DNA from: Patescibacteria group bacterium
GTDB lineage: Bacteria > Patescibacteriota > Minisyncoccia > Minisyncoccales > Staskawiczbacteraceae
Reading direction: 5' to 3'
DNA: 64,000 nt
Assembly: GCA_038065715.1 (NCBI GenBank)
Contig: JBBTQL010000004.1
Coordinates: forward strand, 35,693 to 99,692
Position numbers and translations under genes: made by a program. Under the pieces are notes generated by a model. The model did not search any database, was not told where the DNA came from, and saw nothing but the letters and a program-made list of their open reading frames with translations. Shown here piece by piece: positions 25,700 to 26,726 of the stretch. Numbering within the stretch: position 1 is the stretch's first letter; every line of letters starts with the position of its first letter.

Positions 25700-25705
25700 C
25701 AGTCT

Positions 25706-25715
25706 GGGGGGGGGG
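25706..25715. repeat. Homopolymeric G10 tract in the avd/RT divergent gap
   Basis: G10 lies 6 nt from the avd TTG start and 24 nt before the RT ATG. The paralogous position in DGR-2 has G7. Confidence 0.9.
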
Positions 25716-25739
25716 ATTAAAAGCTGAGTTATTTTGATT

Positions 25740-26726
25740 ATGAAAATTACTTTGCAACATAAATACGAAGACATCATAAGCGTTGAGAATATTTTGGAAG
25801 CATGGCAAGAGTTTCTTCTCGGCAAAAGAAACAAGCCCGATGTTCAAGAATTTTCTCTCTGTCTGATGAATAATGTTTTTAATTTGCACAACGACTTATC
25901 CAATCATACCTACAAACACGGAGGCTATCAACAATTTAAAATTAACGACCCAAAGCCAAGAACAATCCACAAAGCCAGCGTAAAAGACAGATTATTGCAC
26001 CACGCAGTATATCGTATATTATACCCGTTTTTTGATAAAAAGTTTATTGCAGACTCTTTCTCTTGCAGAAACAACAAAGGCACTCATAAAGCATTAAACA
26101 AATTCAGGGAGTTCAGCTATATTGTTTCCAAAAACAACACAAACACCTGCTGGATTTTAAAATGCGACATAAAAAAGTTTTTTGCCAGCGTTGATCAGCA
26201 GATACTAATTAAAATTTTAGAAAAATATATTTCAGAAAAAGATATTATCAACTTTCTAAAAGAAATAATTTTTGGTTTTAAACCCAATGGTTTGCCTCTC
26301 GGTAATTTGACTTCCCAGTTGTTCGCAAATGTTTATCTGAATGAATTTGACCAGTTTGTAAAACACAAATTGAAAGTAAAATACTATATTAGGTATGCCG
26401 ATGACTTCGTAATTTTATCAGAGAACAAAAATTATTTAAAAAACATAATTCCAGAGCTAAAATATTATTTAAAAAACAATTTAAAACTGGAAATTCATCC
26501 AAATAAAATTTTTATTAAAACATTGAATTCTGGCGTTGATTTTTTAGGCTGGATTAATTTTACAGATCATAGAGTTTTAAGGACAAAAACTAAAAACAGA
26601 ATATTAAAGAGAATAAAAAATAATTCAAGTATTGAAACATTAAATTCTTATTCGGGTTTGTTAAAACATGGAAATATGAACAAAATGATTAAGAAATTAT
26701 TTAAGGAAACGGAGATTGCTTTTTAA
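25740..26726 (+). CDS. DGR reverse transcriptase
   Basis: 328 aa from ATG 25740. LPLGNLTSQLFANVYLNEFD (SQ-type motif characteristic of DGR RTs) and RYADDFVIL (YxDD box). Confidence 0.9.
   Translation: MKITLQHKYEDIISVENILEAWQEFLLGKRNKPDVQEFSLCLMNNVFNLHNDLSNHTYKHGGYQQFKINDPKPRTIHKASVKDRLLHHAVYRILYPFFDKKFIADSFSCRNNKGTHKALNKFREFSYIVSKNNTNTCWILKCDIKKFFASVDQQILIKILEKYISEKDIINFLKEIIFGFKPNGLPLGNLTSQLFANVYLNEFDQFVKHKLKVKYYIRYADDFVILSENKNYLKNIIPELKYYLKNNLKLEIHPNKIFIKTLNSGVDFLGWINFTDHRVLRTKTKNRILKRIKNNSSIETLNSYSGLLKHGNMNKMIKKLFKETEIAF

Follow-up and report, generated by a model that had tools for sequence, protein, structure and literature searches.

Introduction

Diversity-generating retroelements (DGRs) represent, to our knowledge, the only natural system of targeted protein hypermutation known in prokaryotes. 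The classical DGRs, among them that of Bordetella phage BPP-1 with the gene order mtd-avd-TR-brt, combine a reverse transcriptase (RT) carrying the motifs [LIV]GxxxSQ and YxDD, an accessory protein of the bAvd four-helix bundle type, adenine-specific differences between a template repeat (TR) and a variable repeat (VR), and the position of the VR in the C-terminal part of the target. These features are shared by a system which occurs twice, as DGR1 and DGR2, in a 64,000-nt stretch of contig JBBTQL010000004.1 from a bacterium of the Patescibacteria group (in the following the window; 34% G+C). In both DGRs, which are genuine members of this class, a poly-G tract is located between the divergently oriented genes avd and RT. 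We propose, with a probability of roughly two thirds, that this tract is a contingency-type simple sequence repeat inside coding sequence, which would make the DGR phase-variable.

Long homopolymer tracts undergo slipped-strand mispairing and drive phase variation in many bacteria. In the intragenic form, an open reading frame (ORF) contains close to its 5' end a G/C homopolymer of approximately 8-13 nt, the length of which is polymorphic in the population. A change of length moves the protein body into or out of frame with the start codon, and the ORF is either full-length or truncated; dinucleotide repeats serve likewise. Examples are the poly-C tract in mga of group A Streptococcus (PMC10330708), the poly-G genes of Campylobacter (PMC3417653) and the poly-G/C tracts predicted in 115 genes of Neisseria meningitidis (PMC5084427). 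The DGR tract resembles these repeats in its length and position, and three of the four features that we looked for in a contingency locus, i.e. repeat length, intragenic position and population polymorphism, appear to be present. However, the switched gene would here be a DGR accessory subunit, sometimes also the polymerase, and not a surface or restriction-modification gene. Furthermore, the tract lies in the head-to-head overlap of ORFs on opposite strands and would be able to gate both of them, and the host belongs to an uncultured Patescibacteria lineage and is not a pathogen.

A second type of phase variation is found in Haemophilus influenzae, where a (TA)n repeat is located between hifA and hifB, and in the poly-G promoter spacer of Neisseria porA; in these cases the repeat length changes the spacing between the -35 and -10 elements. 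A repeat between divergent genes, which can control both of them, is shared with the DGR tract, but no promoter geometry fits here, the tract does not appear to occupy a promoter spacer and control of the reading frame is indicated. Compared to BPP-1, avd is inverted, located between TR and RT and shares 21 nt with the start of RT on the opposite strand, and it contains a hypermutable repeat. The genes are co-directional in BalMu-1 and Lelie, the two phage DGRs inspected, and a repeat upstream of RT is absent from both. We know of no stochastic switch in BPP-1. In the literature searched, which included two large DGR surveys and did not extend to Paul et al. (2017), the main DGR paper on the candidate phyla radiation (CPR), a repeat or phase variation has not been described for DGRs.

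A conserved repeat of variable length between avd and RT

The tract consists of ten G in DGR1 and of seven G in DGR2, both embedded in the common context GGCAACAGTCT-Gn-ATTA(A/G)AAG (coordinates in Table 1). Both runs and their shared context are real, as the original prediction had stated, and the G10 run is clearly non-random: with chance expectations computed for the base composition of the window, approximately 0.003 G10 runs and 0.45 runs of at least seven G are expected per window, and the 18-nt shared context occurs twice where 0.01 occurrences are expected. The distances given at that time could be verified as well, i.e. 6 nt from the tract to the TTG codon of avd and 24 nt (DGR1) or 30 nt (DGR2) to the ATG of RT. 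The two lengths indeed differ by exactly three nucleotides, but this difference is meaningless, since DGR1 carries G9 in an independent assembly.

Related genomes, to which the original prediction had pointed for comparison, strongly support a conserved element. We collected 160 loci, with species-representative genomes and metagenome contigs contributing 80 each. Because the retrieval used the RT protein only, this sample is not skewed toward tract carriers. Sufficient upstream DNA was available for 145 loci, to which the following tract statistics refer. A run of G6-G14 is present at the avd-RT junction of 122 loci, hence orthologous DGRs do not lack the homopolymer; its length has a mode of G9-G10 (G8 in 17, G9 in 38, G10 in 32 and G11 in 19 loci). 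Another ten loci have (GA)n or (GT)n repeats of 11-32 nt at the same position, so that an uninterrupted repeat of some type is kept in 132 of the 145, and only 13 are without a tract. The RT proteins of the loci are 54-80% identical to the query and represent many candidate phyla; avd is divergent in every locus, and a conserved Leu codon of avd, here called Leu1, is found 5-17 nt from the tract. According to tract-anchored position profiles, the flanks of the junction are low in sequence information, and the repeat is its most conserved element. If runs of approximately 7-8 or more G/C, or at least five dinucleotide units, are taken as the threshold of instability, uninterrupted repeats in this range comprise G10 and G7 of the window, G8-G14 in 114 of the 122 poly-G loci and the dinucleotide repeats of the ten (GA)n or (GT)n loci.

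The length of the tract differs between assemblies of the same locus. Such micro-variants were found via look-ups of exact proteins; the closest relative among the metagenome contigs is just 76% identical. A locus from Staskawiczbacteria (P0029) is represented by seven assemblies without a single mismatch over approximately 1,390 nt of flanking DNA, which show G10 in three, G11 in three and G12 in one case. Ten assemblies of a locus from Harrisonbacteria (P0017) comprise G9 (five), G10 (three), G11 (one) and G12 (one). In two more pairs the flanks are identical and the tract differs by one G, and a pair of 96% identity differs by three GT units. The contig from Hainich H43 (20,933 nt; assembly ERZ1292632) is identical to positions 15793-36726 of the window (20,934 nt) except for one G, which makes the tract of DGR1 G9 instead of G10; over the same 20,934 nt, the G8 run at 34554 and 54 A/T runs of 7-8 nt remained unchanged. 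The G7 of DGR2 is constant in three other assemblies. The polymorphism is one at the level of assemblies, and sequencing error is possible at the level of reads. Moreover, contigs and scaffolds frequently end or hold N-gaps at the tract (L165 at 1156-1199, L016, L169 and L181-L184). Taken as found in the assemblies, these length changes mark the tract as a probable slippage-prone, hypermutable element.

The tract lies within the avd reading frame

The original prediction regarded the TTG next to the tract as the start codon of avd and placed the tract in a non-coding divergent control region. Both assumptions had to be abandoned. The supposed start is TTG in 51 loci, TTA in 17, CTG in 12, CTT in 12, CTA in 4 and CTC in 3; it represents a conserved Leu and not a start, because all six Leu codons are used across the loci, and in 36 of them the codon is TTA, CTT, CTA or CTC. 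Between the tract and Leu1, the avd frame contains no stop in 309 codons from 112 loci, compared to 19 stops in 508 codons of the other two frames. The avd ORF therefore extends up to the tract.

On the other side of the tract, a minus-strand ATG is found exactly antisense to the His7 codon of RT, and the frame that it opens, here called frame X, reaches the tract without a stop in all of the 59 loci. In the spacer, which is non-coding for RT, antisense stops are absent from frame X (0/397) and present in the other two frames (16/376 and 80/349). Even within RT the codon choice is constrained. The His7 codon is CAT in 56 and CAC in 3 loci, compared to a ratio of 370:325 for the other His codons of RT. 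The codons TTA, CTA and TCA, which give antisense stops, are used for none of 68 Leu/Ser residues at RT codons 2-6 and for 825 of 2,684 in the remaining RT (p = 4e-11), and Leu5 is encoded by TTG in 44 of 49 loci although Leu at other positions is most often encoded by TTA. Purifying selection thus keeps avd open on both sides of the tract. The head-to-head overlap of the two genes comprises 21 nt, i.e. the first seven RT codons, and the Met1 codon of either gene lies in antisense opposite the His7 codon of its partner.

Accordingly placed within an ORF by stop avoidance on both sides, by tract-less relatives that are in frame and by predicted proteins with a Pro run, the tract would be read as prolines, and the ATG antisense to His7 is the predicted true start of avd, as judged from the ORFs. 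In a protein collection, 60 of the 120 best Avd homologues are predicted with an N-terminal extension of the type 'M.Q.NFH...PPP-RLLPVLQK', and 1,933 Avd homologues carry PF22296. The peptide MLQSNFHNQNNSAFNPPPR or its relatives would be part of the extension, if it is translated. As stated in the original prediction, a purine-rich ribosome-binding site (RBS) is missing at avd, but this observation is uninformative, since a Shine-Dalgarno-like motif precedes only 5 of the 38 window ORFs of at least 200 amino acids (aa). Most starts are preceded by A/T-rich sequence, and this organism seems to initiate translation as a rule without Shine-Dalgarno pairing.

Tract length sets the reading frame

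If the tract toggles the frame, a locus that lost the mutable tract is expected to be fixed in frame, which provides a natural control. Among the 13 tract-less loci, of which one carries a G9 at a greater distance and two are duplicates of each other, 11 could be evaluated. The ATG antisense to His7 is in frame with avd in 10 of these 11 loci, compared to 32 of 116 poly-G loci (28%; Fisher p ~5e-5).

The consequences can be read from the ORFs that begin at the conserved ATG. In the locus P0029 from Staskawiczbacteria, G12 gives an ORF of 142 aa, whereas 41 aa result from G10 and 24 aa from G11. In P0017 from Harrisonbacteria the ORF comprises 131 aa with G10 and 22 aa with G9. For DGR1 of the window, 139 aa are obtained with G9, and G12 would also join avd, whereas G10 leaves 45 aa. 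No full-length state has been seen among the assemblies of DGR2, in which G7 gives 32 aa; G6 or G9 would join avd there. The G10 state of DGR1 is off-frame with the conserved ATG, but two locus-specific ATGs (25777-25772), which are absent from relatives, are in frame and give rise to the 145-aa ORF of NCBI. Hence, the tract length would set the reading frame of avd and, in a subset of loci, that of RT. The earlier suggestion that tract length switches avd and/or RT is retained to the extent that the tract is conserved, probably slippage-prone and frame-setting, but it would act via the frame inside avd and not via an RBS or promoter.

The subset just mentioned comprises approximately 15% of the loci, in which the RT ORF crosses the tract as well; in both window loci the ATG of RT is downstream of it. 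In total, 22 loci are without ATG, GTG or TTG after the tract in the RT frame, including all five (GA)n loci. An ATG is present 54-70 nt upstream of the tract in 15 of the 22, antisense to a His codon of avd and followed by an ORF that is open to the tract; five of these 15 ORFs match the frame of RT, the other ten do not. In the (GA)n sub-clade (L032, L062, L069, L139 and L155) the repeat abuts the conserved N-terminus of RT and would read as Arg-Glu repeats, and the tract-less relative L143 has a continuous in-frame RT ORF that starts 22 codons upstream, inside the opposite-strand avd. Codons giving antisense stops amount to 13.5% in avd codons 1-20 of RT-crossing loci, compared to 27-28% (p ~0.01-0.02). 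Therefore, RT in these loci appears to start at the ATG antisense to the upstream avd His, with fewer loci and weaker statistics than for avd. Each of the two extensions is in antisense codon register with the other gene, so that avd and RT come into frame together at one and the same tract length.

Proposed mechanism and its alternatives

According to our model, the avd ORF would begin at the ATG antisense to His7 and continue through 13-25 nt of apparent spacer, 2-4 Pro codons and 1-5 linker codons into the Leu-Pro-Val-Leu-Gln-Lys of the Avd four-helix bundle. Slipped-strand mispairing would alter the tract by at least one base at a time and thereby decide whether the only conserved start is in frame with the Avd body. 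An off-frame tract would silence Avd and switch off mutagenic retrohoming, until a later slip restores the frame. Such an effect on retrohoming is expected because Avd is needed for cDNA synthesis in BPP-1, where the bRT-Avd complex together with the DGR RNA is necessary and sufficient for this reaction in vitro (PMC6182149). In the RT-crossing loci, a single tract would toggle avd and RT together. We are slightly inclined to go further and to regard the repeat in the reciprocal overlap as a stochastic ON/OFF switch of targeted hypermutation that has been selected for and is universal in the Patescibacteria DGR clade, with most cells OFF, a minority mutating and, in some lineages, one tract gating Avd and RT.

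However, it must be mentioned that several observations weigh against a frame switch. The in-frame phase is not enriched among the 116 poly-G loci, where the three phases are represented by 32, 46 and 38 loci; either most sampled populations are OFF, or the frame is less important than assumed. The VR of DGR2 is fully diversified, with differences at 21 TR adenines, despite an off-frame avd and G7 in four assemblies; this diversity may be old, or the proteins of DGR1, the RT of which is 80% identical, may act in trans. Leu1 is TTG or CTG in approximately half of the loci, including both of the window, and phase-independent leaky initiation from this codon is possible. Both ATGs are without a Shine-Dalgarno sequence, although this is the norm in the genome. 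The length differences exist between assemblies and not within reads, and errors of Illumina sequencing or of assemblers at G9-G12 could inflate the polymorphism. Furthermore, the codon statistics count kin loci as independent.

The equal phases and the diversified VR of DGR2 also speak for recoding, the strongest of the alternatives, which we nevertheless regard as unlikely. It assumes that slippage of RNA polymerase or frameshifting of tRNA-Pro on the C-run yields some Avd at any tract length and throttles Avd to a low and roughly constant level. Slippage is known to occur at long homopolymers and at CCC-C sites. However, a fixed programmed shift predicts one enriched phase, and none was found; the genomic length varies in populations, which causes heritable frame changes anyway. 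Moreover, (GA)n and (GT)n substitute for poly-G, and all three repeats have DNA slippage in common, but neither slippage of homopolymer transcription nor shiftiness of Pro codons. Because GA and GT repeats replace poly-G, DNA slippage is the property that seems to be selected.

A non-coding divergent control region, in which the promoter spacing or the ribosome binding of avd (with the TTG start) and/or RT would depend on the tract length, appears quite improbable. It would be in line with the short distances of the tract to TTG and to the RT ATG in the window, and another G8 run of the window does fill the spacer of a TTGACA-N17-TATTAT arrangement. In contrast, the codons TTA, CTT, CTA and CTC at the supposed start of 36 loci, the stop-free frames of the avd strand on both sides of the tract, the information-poor flanks and the tract-less loci, which conserve the frame rather than the spacing, are difficult to reconcile with it. 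A sigma-70-like pair of -35 and -10 hexamers bracketing the tract is present on neither strand, and the nearest TTGCAA would give a spacer of 22-25 nt. Neither a promoter-spacer nor a discriminator model finds support. Poly-G as Shine-Dalgarno sequence of RT was also considered and rejected, since its spacing to the RT start ranges from 3 to 58 nt (with an outlier of 108 nt) and Shine-Dalgarno sequences are rare in the genome.

Still less probable is a structural nucleic-acid element. It could be an RNA or DNA motif to which Avd or RT binds, the loop of a hairpin or a strand that pairs with a complementary run in the TR RNA. No other feature of the avd-RT junction is as conserved as the tract, and a non-coding segment adjoining the RT gene of BPP-1 binds Avd (PMC6182149), but the interchange of G, GA and GT repeats makes sequence identity unnecessary. 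Two forms of such an element were tried and rejected. A hairpin around the tract is not favoured by its flanks, since the native flank duplex and flanks swapped between loci both reach -4.5 kcal/mol (p = 0.96). Long-range pairing would need a complementary C, TC or AC run, and within 1.5 kb there is none, nor one that co-varies with the repeat type. A search of Rfam gave no match at the tract and only that of transfer-messenger RNA (tmRNA) in the window. Finally, it is hardly credible that the tract is artefactual or a neutral site of frequent mutation without function. Illumina sequencing is prone to errors in poly-G, and contigs break at the tract, but an uninterrupted repeat with unique sequence on either side is found in 132 of 145 independently assembled loci, and a neutral G10 would decay via interruptions.

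Significance

If the switch is conserved as proposed, DGR activity in the abundant CPR bacteria would be bet-hedged at the population level. The DGR clade restricted to Patescibacteria (clade 2) shows lower-than-average DGR activity (PMC8144416), which fits to many populations being OFF, as a correlation only; if true, bet-hedging could explain this low activity. The tract phase should then predict VR diversification in metagenomic time series.

There are also practical consequences. The avd starts are probably mis-annotated throughout the clade: gene-caller lengths of avd range from 107 to 145 aa across loci and vary with tract length, and for the DGR1 locus alone 119, 139 and 145 aa have been called. 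In two-thirds of the loci avd appears frameshifted. Assembly breaks at the tract bias DGR surveys, in which CPR loci are likely fragmented and avd mis-called. Moreover, the correct avd ORF would be needed for tools of DGR-based diversification that are derived from CPR elements.

Organization of the two DGRs and other features of the window

The assignment of both loci to the DGRs is based on several lines of evidence. The RT of DGR1 matches RVT_1 (E = 1e-24) and carries LGNLTSQ at residues 187-193 and YADD at residues 219-222, which identifies it as DGR-type. The accessory protein next to it reaches 45.3 bits with Pfam bAvd at a cut-off of 40; that of DGR2 is slightly under this cut-off. Nearly all TR/VR differences are found at adenines of the TR, in DGR1 21 of 22 mismatches. 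Retrohoming is visible here solely as a historical signature, namely the A-to-N differences in the VRs. The layout of DGR2 (62142-64000) is the same as that of DGR1, and homologues of the RT are annotated as Patescibacteria, including Staskawicz-, Harrison- and Nealsonbacteria and others.

Table 1. Features of DGR1 and DGR2 in the window
Feature	Position	Strand	Remarks
DGR1 target gene	24219..24878	+	variable repeat VR1 at 24741-24866
Template repeat TR1	25208..25333	+	126-nt match to VR1, 22 mismatches, 21 at TR adenines
avd (bAvd) body, DGR1	25340..25705	-	linker codons AGA CTG; Leu1 TTG 25699-25697; stop 25342-25340
Terminator-like hairpin and T-run, DGR1	25346..25364	+	directly 3' of TR1, within the 3' end of the opposite-strand avd coding sequence
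DGR1 poly-G tract	25706..25715	poly-G on +, poly-C on avd strand	G10 here; predicted to be read as Pro run in the 5' part of the avd ORF
avd 5' extension (frame X), DGR1	25716..25760	-	ATG 25760-25758 antisense to RT His7 CAT; would encode MLQSNFHNQNNSAFN ahead of the tract
Reverse transcriptase, DGR1	25740..26726	+	LGNLTSQ 26298-26318; YADD 26394-26405
Two extra minus-strand ATGs, DGR1	25777-25775 and 25774-25772	-	in avd frame when G10
DGR2 target gene	62142..62822		VR2 at 62704-62813
Template repeat TR2	63165..63274	+	21/21 VR2/TR2 mismatches at TR adenines
avd body, DGR2	63274..63648	-	off-frame with upstream ATG at G7; Pfam bAvd 37.8 bits
DGR2 poly-G tract	63649..63655		G7
avd 5' extension (frame X), DGR2	63656..63706	-	ATG 63706-63704 antisense to RT His7
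Reverse transcriptase, DGR2	63686..64000	+	gene cut by the window end

Some further elements were observed around the TRs. A GC-rich, terminator-like hairpin followed by a T-run is found right after each TR (that of DGR2 at 63288-63308), within the last part of the convergent avd coding sequence, and the TR transcript may end there, without running on into RT as in BPP-1. Just 5' of the TR, a block (25150-25207 and 63100-63164) is kept between DGR1 and DGR2 and is not found in the VRs. It includes GGCAGTGGCAT at 25178 and 63127, and this 11-mer also occurs in L001, L023, L045, L049 and L067, at an equal distance of approximately 550 nt upstream of RT, at RT identities of ~59-65%. The block may belong to the 5' part of the TR RNA or serve as its promoter.

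Apart from the DGRs, the G8 run at 34554-34561 fills the spacer of the TTGACA-N17-TATTAT promoter (34541-34570) approximately 100 nt upstream of a 564-aa gene (34665-36359), the product of which resembles a secreted or cell-wall protein according to its N-terminus, inspected by eye, and a weak PG_binding_1 match. By its predicted promoter elements, this run has the classical geometry of a promoter-spacer phase switch; its length is the same in the second assembly. The sole C run of at least seven nucleotides in the window, a C7 at 57675-57681, is located directly 5' of the AAGGAG RBS of a csrA-like gene (57699-57953). The tmRNA gene is located at 38053-38403 on the minus strand (Rfam RF00023, 112 bits).

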